This document shows, piece after piece, positions 28,044 through 33,890 of a stretch of DNA of 40,000 nucleotides. Position numbers and translations under genes: made by a program. Numbering within the stretch: position 1 is the stretch's first letter; each line of letters starts with the position of its first letter. The notes beneath the pieces are model-generated. The model had not been told where the DNA came from, did no database searches, and saw nothing but the letters and a program-made list of their open reading frames with translations. Origin of the DNA: Lysobacterales bacterium (GTDB lineage Bacteria; Pseudomonadota; Gammaproteobacteria; Xanthomonadales; Ahniellaceae); assembly GCA_016703225.1 (NCBI GenBank), contig JADJCM010000001.1:832088-872087 (forward strand), given 5' to 3'.

Positions 28044-28988
28044 TCAGCCACGATCCAGCGGGCTCAGCAGCCCGACCGGCCCGCGATTGAGCACGTGCGT
28101 GTAGATCTGCGTGGTCGCCACGTCCTCATGCCCGAGCAGTTCCTGCACCGTGCGAATGTCGGCGCCGGTTTCGAGCAGGTGCGTCGCGAAGCAATGGCGC
28201 AGCGTGTGGCAACTGGCGCCGCGCTCGATACCGGCGAGGCGCAATGCACGCTTGAGTGCACGCTGCAGCAGGTCCGGGTTCAGGTGATGGCGGCGCTCGA
28301 CACCCAGGCGCGGATCGAGGCTGCGCGACGCTGCCGGGAACACGTATTGCCAGCCCGGCTCACGCGCCGCATTCGGATACTTGCGCGCCAGCGCATGCGG
28401 CAGGAATACCGCACCGAACCCCGCGCGCAGGTCCGCCGCGTGTATTGCCAGCGCCCTCGCCACGGCGTCACGCAGCGCATCCTGCGATTGCCGCGGCAGC
28501 ATCGTCACCCGGTCCTTGCCGCCCTTGCCATCGCGCACCAGAATCTGGCCGCGCTCGAACTCAATGTCCTTCACGCGCAGCCGCACGCACTCGGAAACGC
28601 GCATGCCGGTGCCATACAGCAGCCGGATCATCGGCGCATACGTCGGCTCCAGTGCCTCCAGCACGCGCCGCACCTCGCCCACGCTCAGCACCACCGGCAA
28701 CCGCGCCGGCCGCTTCGCGCGCACCACCGACTCCATCCACGGCAACCGCACACCCAGCACCTCGCGATACAGGAACAGCAACGCCGCCAGCGCCTGGTTC
28801 TGCGTCGACGCCGCCACATCGCCCTCAACCGCGAGCCGCGACAGGAACACCTCGACCTCCGCCCCACCCATCTCGCGCGGATGGCGCTTTCCATTCGCCA
28901 GGATGAAGCGACGGATCCACCCGCAATACGCCGCCTCGGTCTTCAGGCTGTAATGCTTGACCCGGATCCGCTCCCGCACCTGATCCAT
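28044..28988 (-). CDS. intI: integron integrase
   Basis: MDQVRERIRVKHYSLKTEAAYCGWIRRFI is the N-terminal core-binding part. Catalytic R (GTGMRVSEC), HTLRHCFATHLL and GHEDVATTQIYTHV (Tyr) are present. The IntI-specific insertion is ALARKYPNAAREPGWQYVFPAASRSLDPRLGVERRHHL. The start is set at ATG 28988 (314 aa), although the tracked ORF stays open upstream to 29315. Confidence 0.9.
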   Translation of the reverse strand: MDQVRERIRVKHYSLKTEAAYCGWIRRFILANGKRHPREMGGAEVEVFLSRLAVEGDVAASTQNQALAALLFLYREVLGVRLPWMESVVRAKRPARLPVVLSVGEVRRVLEALEPTYAPMIRLLYGTGMRVSECVRLRVKDIEFERGQILVRDGKGGKDRVTMLPRQSQDALRDAVARALAIHAADLRAGFGAVFLPHALARKYPNAAREPGWQYVFPAASRSLDPRLGVERRHHLNPDLLQRALKRALRLAGIERGASCHTLRHCFATHLLETGADIRTVQELLGHEDVATTQIYTHVLNRGPVGLLSPLDRG

Positions 28989-28996
28989 CAACCGCG

Positions 28997-29079
<83 letters not shown>

Positions 29080-29259
29080 TTGCCCGCGCCAGTGGCCGAG
29101 CCGGCGGCCGAGCCCGAACTCCTGCCCGCCCCTCCACGCACCCGCCGATCACCCGTTATCCCGTCTCCACCGTCGCGATAAGACATATCCCCACTCCACC
29201 GTCGGACATGCCCCATCGTGCCCCCCTGCGAGCCGCAAGTCCTCAGCGCAAGTCTGGAT

Positions 29260-29346
29260 TCTCCCTGCGAAATTTCTTGACCCGCCCCTTCCCCCCACCA
29301 CAGACTCCCGCCCATAGCCCGACCCTTCCGTCGGAGAATTAGCGTA
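29260..29346 (+). other. attI region (approximate) and attI/cassette-1 junction
   Basis: Unique sequence between intI and the first cassette. Identity to the duplicate cassette starts at 29345 (..AATTAGCG|TAGAAGCG..). Confidence 0.4.
29277..29306 (+). promoter_or_regulatory. candidate cassette promoter (Pc-like)
   Basis: TTGACC (29277-29282), an 18-nt C-rich spacer, then CAGACT (29301-29306). It faces the array about 40 nt before the first cassette. The -10 is weak and this is a by-eye call only. Confidence 0.25.
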
Positions 29347-29542
29347 GAAGCGTTTGTCCGAAGCCTTCCGCCTGCTTGTGCAGTAGGTCATTGCGCCGCA
29401 GGGTGCCGCGTTGTTGCGCGCGGTGGCGCCCTCATGCCGATCTCCTCTTGTTGGCCGCGCGCAGTGTTCGTGCGGTCAAGGGCGCGCGCTTCGAAGGTGG
29501 CCCCAGATCTCGCCGAAAGTTGCTCTGTCGCGAGAGGCCGCA

Positions 29543-29571
29543 TTGACGCGCGGGAACGTTCGTCGCATTGT
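29543..29571 (+). promoter_or_regulatory. promoter-like core of ORF-less cassette 1 (TTGACG-17-CATTGT)
   Basis: Lies inside the conserved block GCCGCATTGACGCGCGGGAACGTTCGTCGCATTGTCCGC (29537-29575). Confidence 0.3.
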
Positions 29572-29681
29572 CCGCACGTCGCAGCGCGCGCGAATGTCGG
29601 GCGGCCGTTCGTCAGTCGCCCACTCGCAGCGGTGCAGTCTCAGCCTTCGTCGGAGGTTCGCGGTTTCATGGGCGCAAACGT

Positions 29682-29771
29682 TTCTAACTATGTGTTCAAG
29701 CCGACCGCCGAGGAAGTTCTTCGTTTCAACCACAGCCTGTCGCGCGGCGGCGGCTTAACACGGCGTTAGCG
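29682..29771 (+). repeat. attC, cassette 1 (type A, 90 bp)
   Basis: TTCTAACTATGTGTTCAAGCCGACCGCCGAGGAAGTT...GTCGCGCGGCGGCGGCTTAACACGGCGTTAGCG. Confidence 0.85.
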
Positions 29772-29964
29772 TCGATTGCCCGTAGCCTTTTCTCAGGTTG
29801 TGCACCAGGTGAGCGTGTCGCAATCTGGCCGCGTGATCGTCGGCGCGCTCCATCGAGTTCGGGCTGTCGAGTGTTGTTCGTGGTCGCGTGCGCGCGGTCA
29901 TCGCTCGGCGCTTCGTTCACGCCCCAGAGCTCGCGAGTCTCTTCTTCATCGCCAGCTTGCCGCA

Positions 29965-29993
29965 TTGACGCGCGGGAGCGTTCGTCGCATTGT
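29965..29993 (+). promoter_or_regulatory. promoter-like core of ORF-less cassette 2
   Basis: The same 39-nt block at 29959-29997, with one A>G change. Confidence 0.3.
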
Positions 29994-30101
29994 CCGCATA
30001 CCAGCGAGCGCGAACTATGCGCGGTTGTTCGTCGGTCGCGCTTTTTCAGCGGTGCAGGCTCGGGCTTCGTCAGAGGTGTGCAATGTTTCCGCCGCAATCG
30101 T

Positions 30102-30195
30102 CTCTAACTATGTGTTCAAGCGGACCGCGCGGAAGTAGCGAATTCGCCCTGAACATTTCTCTTCGGCCGCGCGGCCGCTTAACACGGCGTTAGCT
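30102..30195 (+). repeat. attC, cassette 2 (type B)
   Basis: CTCTAACTATGTGTTCAAGCGGACCGCGC...GGCCGCGCGGCCGCTTAACACGGCGTTAGCT. Confidence 0.85.
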
Positions 30196-30198
30196 CTC

Positions 30199-30765
30199 AT
30201 GTTCACTCGGCGCGGCATTTCGATTGCTCTGCTGGTTCTTACGAGCCTCGGTGCAGTTGCCGTGTTCTACGTGGGCATCGCGTCCCTCAAGCCTTCTGCG
30301 CGTGCGCGCGCGGACGCAGAGCTTTTCCTGCCAGCACAGCCGCTTCTCCCAGGCGTTCCGACGGTCCTCAACATTTCCGGACGTCAGCTCGTCCTACTCC
30401 GGCCGACCGACGATCAACTCAGTGCCCTCAAGCGCCTGGATACCCATGTATGGGATCCATCTCGCAGCTCTTACAAGGCAGGCCTCGGTGCCTTTGTATT
30501 CTGGGGGGGCGATACTCGCCGTGGTTGTACCGTCAAGTATGTACCTCCCCACGAATCCACCCTTGTTCGCTACTCTCGGCCCGACGCGGAATGGCTCGGC
30601 GGCTTCGCGAGCGACATTTGCGAGTCAGCGTACGACCTTGCAGGTCGAACCATTCGCACGTGGCGTTACTCGTACAACGGGTTTACCGCAGCAACTCCAA
30701 ACCTTGAGTCTCCCGTGGTCCGGCCCTCGGGTCAGCGATTCGTGGTGTCGCTTCATGAGAGCTAA
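30199..30765 (+). CDS. cassette 3: membrane-anchored Rieske/PetA-like protein with degenerate cluster-binding boxes
   Basis: An N-terminal TM segment is followed by SLKPSARARADA and GRQLVLLRPTDDQLSAL. DTRRGC corresponds to CTHLGC, GGFASDICESAYDLAGR to GGWFCPCHGSHYD..GR, and ATPNLESP to PAP.NL.P. Confidence 0.6.
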   Translation: MFTRRGISIALLVLTSLGAVAVFYVGIASLKPSARARADAELFLPAQPLLPGVPTVLNISGRQLVLLRPTDDQLSALKRLDTHVWDPSRSSYKAGLGAFVFWGGDTRRGCTVKYVPPHESTLVRYSRPDAEWLGGFASDICESAYDLAGRTIRTWRYSYNGFTAATPNLESPVVRPSGQRFVVSLHES

Positions 30766-30849
30766 CTGTGTGTTCAAGCGGACCGCGCAACCTATGCTTC
30801 TTCAACGTGGTGGTCCGCGCCTGCGCGGCCGCTTAACACGGCGTTAGGT
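30760..30849 (+). repeat. attC, cassette 3 (type B)
   Basis: AGCTAACTGTGTGTTCAAGCGGACCGCGC...GCGCGGCCGCTTAACACGGCGTTAGGT. The ORF stop TAA lies inside R''. Confidence 0.85.
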
Positions 30850-30854
30850 GCCGC

Positions 30855-31364
30855 ATGACAGGTTTCGTTTGCGCAACGTGCGGAGAGCTTCATCGAGAAT
30901 TGCCACTTTGCTTTGGCAGTCCGGCACCTGCGCTTTGGCTATCGTTGCCCGAGGCGGAGCGCGAAGCACGCGCAACACTGAGCTCCGACCAGTGCATCGT
31001 TGATGATGAGCACTACTTTGTGCTCGGGCAACTCATCTTGCCAATCCTTGGAACGCCGCAGCATTTCACCTGGCTAGCTTGGGTGTCGTTGAGCGAGTCG
31101 AATTTCAATAGAGCCTCGGAGTTGTGGGAAGCCGAAGGGCGTGAAAGTGAGCCTCCATACTTCGGTTGGCTGCAAAGCGCACTCCCCTACAGCCCGTCCA
31201 CACTCGCCCTAAAGGCAACTGTTCATACCCAACCACTCGGCGAGCGCCCACTCATCGAGCTAGAGCGCACGGACCACCCGTTATCCATTGAGCAACACCA
31301 AGGCATTACCCTTGCTCGAGTGCAGCAAATCGCTGAGCACGCGCTGCACGGCGGCGGCGCCTAA
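30855..31364 (+). CDS. cassette 4: DUF2199-like protein
   Basis: FVCATCGELHRELP, SSDQCIVDDEHYFV, WVSLSESNF, PPYFGWLQSALPY, ERPLIELERTDHPL and QGITLARVQQI match the DUF2199 pattern as recalled. Confidence 0.65.
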   Translation: MTGFVCATCGELHRELPLCFGSPAPALWLSLPEAEREARATLSSDQCIVDDEHYFVLGQLILPILGTPQHFTWLAWVSLSESNFNRASELWEAEGRESEPPYFGWLQSALPYSPSTLALKATVHTQPLGERPLIELERTDHPLSIEQHQGITLARVQQIAEHALHGGGA

Positions 31365-31448
31365 CTATGTGTTCAAGCCGACCGCCGAGGAAGTTGCTCG
31401 TATCATCCACACACCGTCGCGCGGCGGCGGCTTAACACGGCGTTAGAT
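31359..31448 (+). repeat. attC, cassette 4 (type A)
   Basis: GCCTAAC...GGCTTAACACGGCGTTAGAT. The ORF stop lies inside R''. Confidence 0.85.
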
Positions 31449-31795
31449 GTCTTTGGCTCCTGGTGGTTTCTAAACATCTCCTAGCGTAGAGTGATGCCGC
31501 AGTAAACCATGGGTTCTGGTCACCCTGAAGCTTTGGGAAAGAGCTTGCAAGCCCGAGACCGGTTGTTCCGGGCGTGATGAAAGTGGGCTACTGGACAGAG
31601 CCAAGCCTCGTAGATGAGTCGCGAGTTCCCGCGAAGAGCGGGCGCGGAGGGAGTCCTCGGCGGTTGCCGTGCTTTGTGCTCGGGTGCTTTGTGTATTTTG
31701 CTTCGGCTAGTGTGCGCAGGCTCACTGGCGCGCCCCGAATTACATCTGGTGGAAATATTAGATATAGATGACACGATCAAGATCAGGGGGATGCA

Positions 31796-32290
31796 ATGAC
31801 TGGTGAAGTTCTCGGCTTTTTTGCTATTGCGTGCTTCTTGTTTCTATTTGTTTTCGCAATAGAAAAGATTGGTCAGAAACATGATGAAGAACGGAAGCAA
31901 ATGCTGAAGGAGCGTGAATTAACTAAAGTGTTGGAAGATCGAGAGTTTCAGCGTGATGCGAAATTGATTCTTCGGGAAGCCTTCATCGCGTCACTCGGCG
32001 AATTGGTTTCATCAGAATGGATATCATCGTTTTCTAACGAATCCATTGATTCGGGGGCGTTTCGTCGGGGCGAAGGATATCGTTTTACCTTAAGCGCCAA
32101 AGTTGAACGCGATGGGTGGTCGCGCCTGCGGAGAGATCCGAATAGCGACCAAGCAGCGTGGAGATCTGAGCTATTGAGGGTAGCAAAGGTAATCGCCGGA
32201 AATTTCTCCCTTGTTATTGATGAAATTCGCGTCACTGATTCATATTTTAGTATTAGATACACGACGAAGGGTGCTTGGTACCGTGAGTAG
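31796..32290 (+). CDS. cassette 5: hypothetical membrane-anchored protein, strongly low G+C
   Basis: 164-aa ORF with an N-terminal TM segment (VLGFFAIACFLFLFVFAI) and a charged coiled segment. AT-rich codon usage is unlike the host's. No family was recognised. Confidence 0.55.
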   Translation: MTGEVLGFFAIACFLFLFVFAIEKIGQKHDEERKQMLKERELTKVLEDREFQRDAKLILREAFIASLGELVSSEWISSFSNESIDSGAFRRGEGYRFTLSAKVERDGWSRLRRDPNSDQAAWRSELLRVAKVIAGNFSLVIDEIRVTDSYFSIRYTTKGAWYRE

Positions 32291-32631
32291 GAGCACGAGA
32301 TAGATCCATCGGTACGAGTCATTTGAACACGGCGGAACTTCGGAGAATCAGCCCCCTCGCGAGTTGAACACGTTTCGTGGCTTCGGTTCAGCTAGAAAAG
32401 CGGGTTTCATTCGCAGTAGTCCAAATTGGCGCTTAACCGGACGCCGGGTGGGCACTGCGGCGTCATCCCAACCTTGCCGGCGGGCGCGGACATGCGGCGG
32501 CGTGGGTGCGGAAGAGGCTTGCAGTCTGGGGAATTGCGGCCTTGACCCCAAGAGCTTTAGGGTGCAGTCTTTCGCAAGGGTTTGGTGGAGCCTGTTTTTT
32601 GCATTATCTCGGCACCACCGCAAGCAGAGAC

Positions 32632-32720
32632 ATCTAACTAAATGTTCAAGCCGACCGCCGTCCCACCAGTTCGCACTTACCACCGATGTCGCGCGGCGGC
32701 GGCTTAACATGGCGTTAGAA
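32632..32720 (+). repeat. attC, cassette 5 (type A variant)
   Basis: ATCTAACTAAATGTTCAAGCCGACCGCCG...GGCGGCTTAACATGGCGTTAGAA. Confidence 0.8.
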
Positions 32721-32912
32721 GCGTTTGTCCGGAGCTTTACGCCGGCTTGTGCAGTAGGTCATCGCGTCGCTTCGTGCCGCGCTGTTGCGCGCGGTGGCGC
32801 CATCACGCCGATCTCCTCATGTTGTCCGCGCGCAGGCGCGTGCGGCCATGGTCGCGCGCTTCGACAGTTGCCCCAGAGCTCGCCACAGGCTGTGCTGTCG
32901 CGAGTGGCCGCA

Positions 32913-32941
32913 TTGACGCGCGGGAGCGTTCGTCGCATTGT
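32913..32941 (+). promoter_or_regulatory. promoter-like core of ORF-less cassette 6
   Basis: The same 39-nt block at 32907-32945. Confidence 0.3.
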
Positions 32942-33051
32942 CCGCGCACCGCAGTGCGCGCGAATTTCGGGCGGCAGTTCGTCAATCGCCCACTCGCAGC
33001 GGTGCAGTCTCAGCCTTCGTCGGAGGTTCGCGGTTTCATGGGCGCAAACGT

Positions 33052-33141
33052 TTCTAACTATGTGTTCAAGCCGACCGCCGAGGAAGTTCTTCGTTTCAAC
33101 CACAGCCTGTCGCGCGGCGGCGGCTTAACACGGCGTTAGAA
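33052..33141 (+). repeat. attC, cassette 6 (type A)
   Basis: Identical to the attC of cassettes 1 and 7. It ends GTTAGAA. Confidence 0.85.
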
Positions 33142-33334
33142 GCGTTTGTCCGAAGCCTTCCGCCTGCTTGTGCAGTAGGTCATTGCGCCGCAGGGTGCCG
33201 CGTTGTTGCGCGCGGTGGCGCCCTCATGCCGATCTCCTCTTGTTGGCCGCGCGCAGTGTTCGTGCGGTCAAGGGCGCGCGCTTCGAAGGTGGCCCCAGAT
33301 CTCGCCGAAAGTTGCTCTGTCGCGAGAGGCCGCA

Positions 33335-33363
33335 TTGACGCGCGGGAACGTTCGTCGCATTGT
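33335..33363 (+). promoter_or_regulatory. promoter-like core of ORF-less cassette 7
   Basis: The same 39-nt block at 33329-33367, identical to cassette 1. Confidence 0.3.
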
Positions 33364-33473
33364 CCGCACGTCGCAGCGCGCGCGAATGTCGGGCGGCCGT
33401 TCGTCAGTCGCCCACTCGCAGCGGTGCAGTCTCAGCCTTCGTCGGAGGTTCGCGGTTTCATGGGCGCAAACGT

Positions 33474-33563
33474 TTCTAACTATGTGTTCAAGCCGACCGC
33501 CGAGGAAGTTCTTCGTTTCAACCACAGCCTGTCGCGCGGCGGCGGCTTAACACGGCGTTAGGT
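33474..33563 (+). repeat. attC, cassette 7 (type A)
   Basis: Same as 29682-29771 at offset 3792. It ends GTTAGGT. Confidence 0.85.
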
Positions 33564-33569
33564 CTGCAC

Positions 33570-33890
33570 ATGCGCGTCGATCGCACTCGTCACATTGACT
33601 CCAGCGAGCCCGATGCCTCGGGCATGCTCGACTACTACTACGAGTACGACATCTATCGTTTCGTCGAGGGCGCTGAGTGCCTCGTCGCGCGAAGCTACAC
33701 GGACTCGCCTCAGGAAGCGCACTTCCTCAGGTGGGAACTGGGCTCACAACAACGCTCCCTGCAACGCTCAGATTTCGCGAGGCCAGTTGCATTCGCAGCC
33801 GAAGCCTTCCTGAGATCCGAGGGCAAAATTGAACTGAAGTGGCTTGGTGAGCAAGGCACTTACGAGCGGCTCCCCGCGAGGCAGGCCTAA
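33570..33890 (+). CDS. cassette 8: hypothetical protein (106 aa)
   Basis: The ATG lies 8 nt after the GTTAG core and the stop lies inside attC R''. Composition is non-shadow-like. Confidence 0.55.
   Translation: MRVDRTRHIDSSEPDASGMLDYYYEYDIYRFVEGAECLVARSYTDSPQEAHFLRWELGSQQRSLQRSDFARPVAFAAEAFLRSEGKIELKWLGEQGTYERLPARQA

Follow-up and report, generated by a model that had tools for sequence, protein, structure and literature searches.

Four of the first seven cassettes in a chromosomal integron of an uncultured Xanthomonadales bacterium contain no gene and belong to one lineage-restricted family of mobile cassettes, in which a c1-like and a c2-like subtype can be told apart. Since the copies encode no protein and the only strictly conserved part of their interior is promoter-like, they are most likely promoter cassettes. 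With moderate confidence, the function for which they are selected would be to carry an internal, sense-oriented promoter of the sigma-70 type, TTGACG-17-CATTGT. We infer that RNA polymerase uses this site and that transcription reaches the downstream genes.

The integron platform in the window (the whole 40-kb stretch of DNA that was analysed) includes the following features.

28044 to 28988, minus strand: integron integrase gene intI, matching Pfam PF00589 and PF13495, called as a 314-aa gene in sister assembly L029
29277 to 29306, plus strand: candidate Pc (cassette promoter), TTGACC-18-CAGACT, lying some 40 nt before cassette 1
29338 to 29348, plus strand: attI/cassette 1 junction, GCGTAGAAG in the window and GCGTTAG in relatives and the sister assembly

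The open frame of intI continues to 29315, the 314-aa product being that of the sister call, and homologues at 83 to 99% identity carry the name integron integrase. The candidate Pc has identical hexamers and a substituted spacer in the related platforms L011 and L030, and in relatives that share the platform the first cassette is a coding one. At least 16 attC sites were counted on the plus strand. The attC type of this array is about 89 nt long; a shorter type of about 56 to 59 nt occurs in neighbouring arrays of the same order. The gene-less family is represented by four cassettes.

29345 to 29765, plus strand: cassette 1, gene-less, c1-like subtype, identical to cassette 7
29766 to 30189, plus strand: cassette 2, gene-less, c2-like subtype, 80 to 88% identical to seven copies on contig L052
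32715 to 33135, plus strand: cassette 6, gene-less, c1-like subtype, mosaic relative to cassettes 1 and 7
33136 to 33557, plus strand: cassette 7, gene-less, source or sister of cassette 1

Each is bounded by attC, scored here with a covariance model trained on the attC sites of the window's own array.

29681 to 29769, plus strand: attC of cassette 1, 108 bits
30101 to 30193, plus strand: attC of cassette 2, 77.7 bits
33051 to 33139, plus strand: attC of cassette 6, 108 bits
33473 to 33561, plus strand: attC of cassette 7, 108 bits

An earlier, sequence-only reading had described these as paralogous cassettes with normal attC sites, and the full-length attC sites and end-to-end alignment agree. 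All are 421 to 424 bp long with 62 to 66% G+C. Cassettes 1 and 7 are 100% identical over 29345 to 29769, so that the window holds only three distinct sequences; cassette 1 is the copy at attI, and it occupies the first position because IntI inserts cassettes there. Cassettes 1 and 6 had been taken to be of the same length, but a 1-nt indel separates cassette 6 from the 1/7 sequence, along with 38 substitutions. All of these differences fall within alignment columns 1 to 274 and none in the last 154, making cassette 6 a mosaic. Cassette 2 is 65% identical to cassette 1 overall (55% in the 5' part, 93 to 98% in the conserved block described below, and 66% in the 3' part). In cassette 1, the R'' box of attC is lengthened by stem pairing with the first 13 nt of the cassette, an extension that shows compensatory changes (alignment columns 6/341 and 10/337).

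Eight extra members lie on two metagenome contigs, L051 and L052, bringing the family to 12 copies and 10 distinct sequences, with the window, L051, and L052 as independent sources. Seven of the 28 cassettes in the L052 array belong to the family; they alternate with stretches of one to at least five coding cassettes, and two of the seven (L052e and L052f) are identical. IntI has repeatedly copied family members within arrays, and the mosaic relationships among members point to recombination between copies.

Could these be degenerate or very small protein-coding cassettes after all, using open frames of 111 to 130 aa or encoding a short peptide? Long frames of 111, 115, 120, and 130 aa are present, gene callers in other assemblies called two of these (P0121 and P0122), and the single base of the block that varies within the window is the third codon position of one frame. 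This explanation is nonetheless scarcely credible. A G+C content of 62 to 66% accounts for the open frames by chance. Close relatives are separated by 1-nt and 2-nt indels, the latter polymorphic within the c2-like subtype, and two members, L052b and L052d, have at least two stops in each of the six frames. Substitutions between cassette 6 and cassettes 1/7 are spread 14/12/12 by position modulo 3, bearing out the earlier remark that they lack 3-nt periodicity; variable columns are spread 42/37/29, and in no frame do silent codon differences rise above about 35%. A search of 1.84 billion representative proteins found no homologues other than these spurious gene calls and attC-encoded tails, Pfam gave no match on the cassettes, and sister assembly L029 has no gene called in cassette 1, 2, or 6. 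The non-coding nature of the cassettes, already proposed from the sequence, is thus upheld by the non-triplet indels, the six-frame stops, the absence of codon periodicity, and the lack of homologues.

What, then, has been conserved? The best conserved element is a 39-nt block, present as follows.

29537 to 29575, plus strand: block of cassette 1, -35 TTGACG at 29543 to 29548, 17-nt spacer, -10 CATTGT at 29566 to 29571
29959 to 29997, plus strand: block of cassette 2, -35 at 29965 to 29970, -10 at 29988 to 29993
32907 to 32945, plus strand: block of cassette 6, -35 at 32913 to 32918, -10 at 32936 to 32941
33329 to 33367, plus strand: block of cassette 7, -35 at 33335 to 33340, -10 at 33358 to 33363

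Both its position and its reading as TTGACG-17-CATTGT are confirmed, with exactly four occurrences against zero expected by chance, and a search beyond this genome, suggested at the time, found it in the eight further cassettes. In the 10 distinct members, the only invariant interior runs of at least 8 nt are CATTGACGCGCGGG and TTCGTCGCATTGTC. TTGACG and CATTGT lie within these two runs, 17 nt apart and facing down the array, and the three positions that vary within the block all fall mid-spacer, among the four columns that separate the runs. Both hexamers are unchanged in 10 of 10 sequences, whereas beyond the block 58% of interior columns are variable and the lineages are only 61 to 66% identical, a contrast that supports the block as the element under selection. 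The block is in sense orientation in all 12 copies. Sites of such promoter quality are rare: the 40-kb window has 10 on both strands, of which four are the block and one is the candidate Pc, whose -10 resembles that of the block (CAnnnT). Finally, a Chiayiivirga array (L013/L028) contains another family of gene-less cassettes, dissimilar in other respects, that carries TTGACG-17-CATCGT in the same orientation.

Several observations count against a promoter. (i) The motif matches the consensus at 8 of 12 positions and its -10 hexamer at only 3 of 6, below a stricter 9-of-12 scan that returned no site in 29200 to 33700. In Vibrio cassettes, in silico promoter calls failed to predict measured activity (PMC11014356). 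(ii) Besides the hexamers, 14 of the 17 spacer bases and bases flanking the site are invariant, which exceeds the needs of a plain promoter; what is constrained may therefore be something else (an operator, hairpin, or DNA site). (iii) An additional promoter brings little to cassettes 1 and 2, which adjoin the candidate Pc. (iv) In cassette 2, a terminator-like hairpin lies about 25 nt past the predicted start. (v) High copy number can also be produced by selfish spread.

The second point would suit a protein-binding module, in which the boxes, readable as CRCATTGWC repeated directly at 25-nt intervals, would serve as an operator or decoy for a DNA-binding protein, with or without a promoter. 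The boxes are indeed 14 nt long, well past the hexamers, and share CGCATTG(A/T)C. This is a very improbable explanation, however: the cassettes have no candidate binding protein associated with them, and the L013 family lacks the repeat while retaining both the -35 and the -10 hexamer.

The fifth point leads to the idea of selfish or neutral "empty" cassettes made abundant by efficient IntI copying. The boxes would then serve the cassette itself (in folding, recombination, or propagation of the excised circle) or be a relic of an attC core, their likeness to a promoter being incidental. The recent identical duplicates, the mosaic members, and the family's 25% share of the cassettes in two arrays fit this idea. 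So does the attC model, whose best non-attC matches fall on the block (10.4 bits, model positions 24 to 70; E of 0.2 over 11 kb and 0.014 over 761 nt). The block also agrees at 16 of 17 nt with the attC loop of an L013 cassette, and its invariant bases can form a small hairpin with two of the three variable columns in the loop. Against this, the block shows no significant match to the attC consensus of the window itself (66 to 207 of 500 shuffles are as good) and a marginal one to the L013 attC (4 to 9 of 500). The family's attC sites are ordinary for these arrays, in which coding cassettes also carry extended R stems. Useless cassettes, moreover, are easily excised, yet the boxes have stayed invariant across divergent lineages. 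Overall, this explanation is rather unlikely.

It is also quite improbable that the cassettes are genes for a noncoding RNA or cis-acting RNAs, whether a small RNA transcribed from the block or a structured leader on transcripts from upstream. Mean pairwise identity is higher 3' of the block than in the 5' part (76% versus 71%), a trend also seen between cassettes 1 and 2. Cassette 6 has a long hairpin (z = -3.7), a gene-less Xanthomonas cassette is credited with sRNA-Xcc1 (PMC6557892; 10.1101/2025.06.18.660453), and cassette 2 has a hairpin that would give an RNA of about 45 nt.

30019 to 30046, plus strand: terminator-like hairpin followed by TTTTT, private to cassette 2

The small or structured RNA suggested earlier is nevertheless not supported. 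The T-run of this sole terminator-like hairpin is missing in the other nine distinct members, and Rfam gave no family for the cassettes even at E up to 10. Fold z-scores are ordinary (-0.9 to +0.8 for the putative transcript; -0.8 to +0.5 for the hairpin regions of cassettes 1 and 2). Double changes affect 6 of 70 predicted pairs, a number reached by 88 of 500 shuffles; nearly all are split by the two subtypes, so that each represents a single event, and pairs inside the block never vary.

How would a promoter cassette benefit its array? Transcription from the proposed promoter would start about 110 nt ahead of the cassette's own attC and, running in the direction of the array, would pass through that site into one or more of the following cassettes. 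Expression would thereby restart inside the array, offsetting the polar effect of an untranslated cassette. Poorly translated cassettes lower the expression of downstream ones (PMC11511950), which is why an untranslated cassette lacking a promoter of its own would be costly. The earlier suggestion that the cassettes re-prime transcription beyond the reach of Pc does not suit positions 1 and 2, a pair lying about 40 nt from the candidate Pc. It is possible, though doubtful, that the cassettes also aid translation of the next cassette, through a conserved GGAGGT and start codon that open a frame of 31 to 36 codons across attC.

29652 to 29769, plus strand: putative Shine-Dalgarno-like GGAGGT (29652 to 29657), 10 nt, and an ATG-led 33-codon frame (29668 to 29769)
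33022 to 33139 and 33444 to 33561, plus strand: putative equivalent GGAGGT and frame arrangements in cassettes 6 and 7
30072 to 30193, plus strand: AGAGGT, 5 nt, and an ATG-led 36-codon frame (30083 to 30193) through the attC of cassette 2

The 33-codon frame would cross the attC of cassette 1 itself and end on the TAG within GTTAG. The Shine-Dalgarno-like motif belongs to a patch, GCTTCGTC[G/A]GAGGT, of which 13 of 14 positions are invariant. Where cassette 2 has its ATG, the L052 copies carry GTG.

The sequence-only reading knew of no described function for such an element, but gene-less cassettes with sense promoters have been published (PMC11014356, PMC6557892), and by analogy the family is most likely a further case of this kind, known from Vibrio and Treponema. 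In Vibrio chromosomal integrons, most tested gene-less cassettes had sense promoter activity (Blanco et al. 2024, PMC11014356). Like the family here, they are attC-bounded, sense-oriented members of long chromosomal arrays, have a predicted start in the interior rather than at the 5' end, and are proposed to transcribe downstream cassettes. They are backed by reporter assays, RT-qPCR, and 5'-RACE, while the promoter of the present family is predicted from sequence. They are also AT-rich, 491 to 666 bp long, and mostly unrelated singletons with often diffuse starts, unlike this G+C-rich, shorter, multi-copy family with one sharply conserved -35/-10 pair. The Treponema cassettes from oral metagenomes (Tansirichaiya et al. 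2019, PMC6557892) are likewise ORF-less and act as promoters, and one occupied the first position beside Pc, as cassette 1 does, with no synergy with Pc in constructs. They bear no sequence relationship to the family, come from a reverse integron, and were assayed in E. coli. Closer in taxonomy is a recurrent multi-copy "empty" cassette noted in Xanthomonas integrons, for which its authors proposed promoter activity (10.1101/2025.06.18.660453); by description only, it is alike in order, in being gene-less, and in occurring several times per array. The sRNA-Xcc1 of Xanthomonas campestris (Chen et al. 2011, cited in PMC6557892 and 10.1101/2025.06.18.660453) is a non-protein product attributed to a xanthomonad integron cassette. 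As those citing papers present it, that cassette contains symE as well and is oriented opposite to Pc, whereas the present family is gene-less and sense-oriented and has no Rfam match or supported RNA structure. Array-internal promoters independent of Pc are found as well in the cmlA1, qnrVC1, ere(A), and toxin-antitoxin cassettes (listed in PMC6557892). Those promoters serve the gene of their own cassette, while any transcript started here would serve the cassettes downstream.

The sequence-only reading had described a family of four cassettes without genes, each with a normal attC site. All four exist as described, in the array of a chromosomal integron. Each ends in an attC with R''/L''...L'/R' boxes and the GTTRRRY core, scores 78 to 108 bits with an attC covariance model, and lies in array orientation in an array that adjoins intI and attI. 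The window has a G+C content of ~68%, and pattern searches together with the covariance model place at least 16 attC sites on its forward strand, of one homogeneous type of ~89 nt and reaching to 39.3 kb. The nearest integrases carry the label Xanthomonadales, and relatives of the attC sites are found in Chiayiivirga, Ahniella, Dokdonella, and Rhodanobacteraceae genomes.

Features of the integron platform and of the cassette family (window coordinates)
28044-28988, reverse strand: intI, the integron integrase gene (Pfam PF00589 and PF13495; a 314-aa product is called in the sister assembly, L029)
29277-29306, forward strand: candidate Pc, TTGACC-18-CAGACT (hexamers the same in the related integron platforms L011 and L030, where single spacer bases differ)
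~29340: junction of attI and cassette 1 (homologous to the junctions in L011 and L030)
29345-29765, array orientation: cassette 1, with the 39-nt block at 29537-29575
29766-30189, array orientation: cassette 2, with the block at 29959-29997
32715-33135, array orientation: cassette 6, with the block at 32907-32945
33136-33557, array orientation: cassette 7, with the block at 33329-33367

The candidate Pc is the likely one, since its hexamers are kept in L011 and L030 while the spacer carries substitutions. The host is represented by metagenome assemblies only. In the sister assembly, GCA_016707955.1 (L029), this locus recurs with 98.8% identity, which confirms the arrangement. L029 was rejected as independent evidence because it covers practically one and the same genome and is a noisy product of long reads; its run of ~475 A inside a gene (L029 16299-16774) and the many closely spaced indel errors where it repeats cassette 7 are assembly artefacts. 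Two details of the platform may be added. At the attI/cassette 1 junction (29338-29348), the window reads GCGTAGAAG and lacks one T of the GTTAG crossover core, for which L029, L011, and L030 have GCGTTAG. Either the assembly is wrong here or the lesion is genuine, in which case it would put the first recombination site out of action. Directly upstream of the called intI start, within a longer open frame, lies the hexanucleotide repeat (GACGCC/GATGCC)n (28990-29083), with fewer copies in L030 and a different hexamer repeat at the same place in L011; it behaves as a variable-number repeat in the leader or N terminus of intI.

How are the four cassettes related? They are paralogous, as had been proposed, but cassettes 1 and 7 are base-for-base identical (29345-29769), and copies 1 and 6 are not of the same length. 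The latter differ by 38 substitutions and one 1-nt indel, all within the first 274 of 428 alignment columns, a mosaic pattern indicating that copies have recombined with one another. The overall identity of cassette 2 is 65%, with 55% identity 5' of the block, 93 to 98% within it, and 66% 3' of it. Including the relatives described below, the family comprises 12 copies, of which 10 are distinct in sequence. They fall into two subtypes: the c1-like one takes in cassettes 1/7 and 6 together with the member on metagenome contig L051, and the c2-like one takes in cassette 2 and the members on metagenome contig L052. Identity is 61 to 66% between the subtypes and 80 to 95% inside them.

These relatives were reached indirectly. 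Exact-pattern scans for the block gave 0 matches in genome contigs, JGI metagenome contigs, and viral contigs; members turned up later by another route, so those collections simply lack them. Cassette 6 had no blastn match among plasmids, and nhmmer and blastn showed the family to be absent from 27 loci with the attC pattern and from 21 loci chosen for their close homologues of IntI. When cassettes 1 and 2 were translated in six frames and concatenated, the query matched nothing among 5.8 billion proteins, where the word index probably failed on a long, low-complexity query, since phmmer with the 130-aa open frame of cassette 6 later found two spurious gene calls (P0121 and P0122) among 1.84 billion representative proteins. 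The contigs of these calls hold family members, one on L051 and seven on L052 (two in tandem, two identical), and the 13.7-kb L052 thereby devotes 7 of its 28 cassettes to the family. The block is therefore kept in 8 further cassettes outside this genome, a point on which the sequence-only reading had made its idea depend. An insertion sequence with an rve-type transposase breaks into both arrays (L052 3602-5028 and L051 1580-3048).

Indirect evidence suggests that the family cassettes are mobile as a unit through IntI: cassette 7 has an identical copy at attI, related platforms have other first cassettes, and L052 has copies spread along its array, including an identical pair. Platforms 99% and ~88% identical to that of the window carry different first cassettes; in L030 (99% IntI identity) and L011 the first is an ordinary coding cassette, so cassette 1 is a recent insertion at attI. 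The proposal that the family re-primes transcription beyond the reach of Pc does not fit cassettes 1 and 2, both of which adjoin Pc and whose position reflects IntI insertion at attI. The identical pair in L052 (8812-9232 and 9647-10067; 100%) has one coding cassette between its copies.

In each family cassette, the first 13 nt can base-pair with the stretch that immediately precedes R'', and differences between the subtypes in this stem are compensatory. The same pairing occurs in coding cassettes 3, 4, and 8, which makes it a general extended attC stem with nothing particular to the family. In cassette 3, the first 12 nt (TTAGCTCTCATG, 30190-30201) are the exact reverse complement of the last 12 nt before the attC spacer (CATGAGAGCTAA, 30755-30766), so that the start codon and the gene end both fall within an extended R'/R'' stem; in cassettes 4 and 8 the complementarity extends to 9 to 10 of 11 nt. 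Cassette 5 (31443-32714) is atypical, with 1272 nt, just 52% G+C, and a single 164-aa ORF (31796-32290; no Pfam match). Between the cassette boundary and the start of this ORF lie 350 nt, and the ~420 nt beyond its end show no obvious gene.

Could the family encode a protein after all? As the sequence-only reading had it, no frame is preserved. Indels between members are of 1 nt and 2 nt, the 2-nt indel just after the block being polymorphic within the c2-like subtype, and two L052 members (L052b and L052d) have at least 2 stops in every one of the six frames. Variable columns show no periodicity (42/37/29 by position modulo 3), and synonymous differences are in excess in no frame. Pfam has no match to the family cassettes, L029 has no gene calls in cassettes 1, 2, and 6, and protein matches to the family consist of the two spurious calls and attC-encoded ORF tails, SNYVFKPTAEEV...GGGLTRR. 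Many short public proteins (among them P0123-P0130) have this tail, which results when this type of attC is translated in one frame, with the TAG of GTTAG as the stop; they look like gene-calling artefacts or short frames reading through attC. A small reverse-strand ORF from the CAT of CATTGT (MRRT[FL]PRVNAA...) was discarded, its lengths being 14, 30, and 59 aa in three window copies.

A published working definition of the gene-less cassette is the absence of both an annotated gene and any ORF of >210 bp (PMC11014356). Family members exceed that size, with open frames of 111 to 130 aa, two of them called as genes in other assemblies. The literal size rule is ill-suited here because the DNA is 62 to 66% G+C, and long open frames are the chance expectation at that composition. 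In the evolutionary sense the family is gene-less, with no frame kept among homologues and no protein homologues. A degenerate gene is an exceedingly improbable reading.

A small RNA had also been envisaged, and this suggestion fared poorly. Rfam 15 has no match on the window at gathering thresholds, and only chance-level matches at E values up to 10 in 29200-33700. For the putative transcript, fold energies resemble those of shuffled sequences (z between -0.9 and +0.8), and a long hairpin is exceptional only as it occurs in cassette 6 (z = -3.7). In a 10-sequence alignment, double changes affect 6 of the 70 interior pairs predicted, a number that 88 of 500 shuffles reach, and almost all of these changes split 3:7 along the two subtypes, so that each amounts to a single event. 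The RNAalifold covariation term is -2.8. Two further candidates were rejected, namely, a T-run hairpin in cassette 2 (30019-30046) as a terminator of the family, which is private to that cassette, and a hairpin around GTTCGTC (columns 258-280), which several L052 members cannot form intact. That the family is an RNA gene or element, for which the cassette 6 hairpin might speak, is distinctly unlikely.

What is conserved, then, is the block. It occurs 4 times in the window, at the places first noted, against an expectation of none, and it is indeed the best conserved interior element. The only invariant interior runs of at least 8 nt, CATTGACGCGCGGG and TTCGTCGCATTGTC, lie there, separated by four columns of which three vary ([A/T][A/G]C[G/A]). 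Of the interior columns outside the block, 58% are variable, and the one other invariant run of that length is the attC R''-L'' box. TTGACG and CATTGT stand 17 nt apart on the array strand in 12 of 12 copies (10 distinct members), and variation sits in the spacer. Sites of comparable quality (-35 matching at least 5 of 6; spacer of 16 to 18 nt; -10 matching 3 or more of 6, A2 and T6 among them) are rare, numbering 10 in 80 kb, both strands counted, four being the block and one the candidate Pc. The block site fails a stricter 9-of-12 promoter scan. Motifs of sigma-54 and ECF-type promoters, inspected by eye, were set aside, the candidate bases not being conserved among members.

The comparison demonstrates strong selection on two boxes with promoter geometry in sense orientation; that they form a promoter we infer. 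RNA polymerase would use the TTGACG-17-CATTGT site, and transcripts would cross attC into the next cassette. Such an internal sense promoter is the selected function that we favour for the family, at about even odds. As a caveat, 14 of the 17 bases in the spacer are invariant as well, and this suggests that an operator or a structure overlaps the site. A module for protein binding, with CRCATTGWC as its direct repeat, to which this invariance might also be put down, is very unlikely.

A different kind of explanation is selfish or neutral spread, in which the boxes serve the cassette itself or are a relic of attC. The identical duplicates and the family's 25% share of the cassettes in two arrays speak for it, as does a marginal match of the block to the attC covariance model (10.4 bits; E of 0.2 for a search of 11 kb and 0.014 for one of 761 nt). 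In Smith-Waterman comparisons of the block with attCs, with shuffles, p ranges from ~0.01 to 0.4 according to the attC used, and a fossil attC is at best a marginal case. Spread of this kind is an unlikely account of the family.

Other gene-less cassettes exist in the retrieved loci. A second family, of 295 nt, occurs four times within 8 kb of a Chiayiivirga genome (L013 877-5299, reverse strand), with two copies in tandem, and once more on a metagenome contig (L028 1904-2200). It carries TTGACG-17-CATCGT in the same sense orientation, and its attC is of the window's type, though the array around it is made mostly of short attCs. Homology between its interior and that of the family described here was considered and is not significant. 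Other cassettes consist almost wholly of tandem repeats of ~19 to 37 nt, such as AGAAAAGCCAATCGGTTAG repeated ~15 times (L019 2572-3042 and 7006-7425, in reversed-strand coordinates; L006 1178-1683; L014 524-1035).

Might the cassettes provide translation as well as transcription? In the patch GCTTCGTC[G/A]GAGGT, 13 of the 14 positions never vary, and every member has a start codon and a frame of 31 to 36 codons after it. The start is an ATG 10 nt downstream of GGAGGT in c1-like members and a GTG or ATG 5 nt downstream in c2-like members. The frame crosses the cassette's own attC, and its stop, either TAG (in GTTAG) or TAA (in CTTAAC), lies only a few bases short of the start codon of the next cassette. 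The family could be read as a self-contained mobile expression module, a promoter followed by a Shine-Dalgarno sequence, a start codon, and a leader frame through attC, that would transcribe the next cassette and unlock its translation. Selection for such a function would explain the spread of the family to a quarter of an array. Against the leader, GGAGG occurs about once per kilobase here, and two of three frames cross attC anyway. We think the module rather doubtful; a leader frame, if true, would link the promoter-cassette model to the finding that translation of the upstream cassette governs array expression (PMC11511950).

The sequence-only reading knew of no described function for such an element. 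That was mistaken, the closest parallels being the promoter cassettes of Vibrio and Treponema and a recurrent “empty” Xanthomonas cassette. Most gene-less Vibrio cassettes tested show sense promoter activity, and transcription is not terminated at attC sites (PMC11014356). Expression downstream of a cassette falls when that cassette is poorly translated (PMC11511950), so that a cassette with neither translation nor a promoter should carry a cost. In Vibrio, in silico promoter calls are unreliable and promoters are not predictable from sequence (PMC11014356), and part of the promoter-cassette activity in its AT-rich arrays may be spurious, AT-driven initiation. The block, in turn, is a compact element of ~40 nt open to trial in Xanthomonadales; if confirmed, the family would extend promoter cassettes to another order and show that they can multiply to ~25% of an array. 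Whereas the Vibrio promoter cassettes were proven by experiment in AT-rich arrays, the family described here is G+C-rich, has 10 distinct sequences, and has a putative promoter that comparison suggests. It differs from these parallels as a multicopy, G+C-rich family whose comparative data pick out one promoter-like core. Purifying selection on a single -35/-10 pair amid a freely varying background is comparative evidence that a promoter-like element, and not the mere absence of a gene, is what is maintained.
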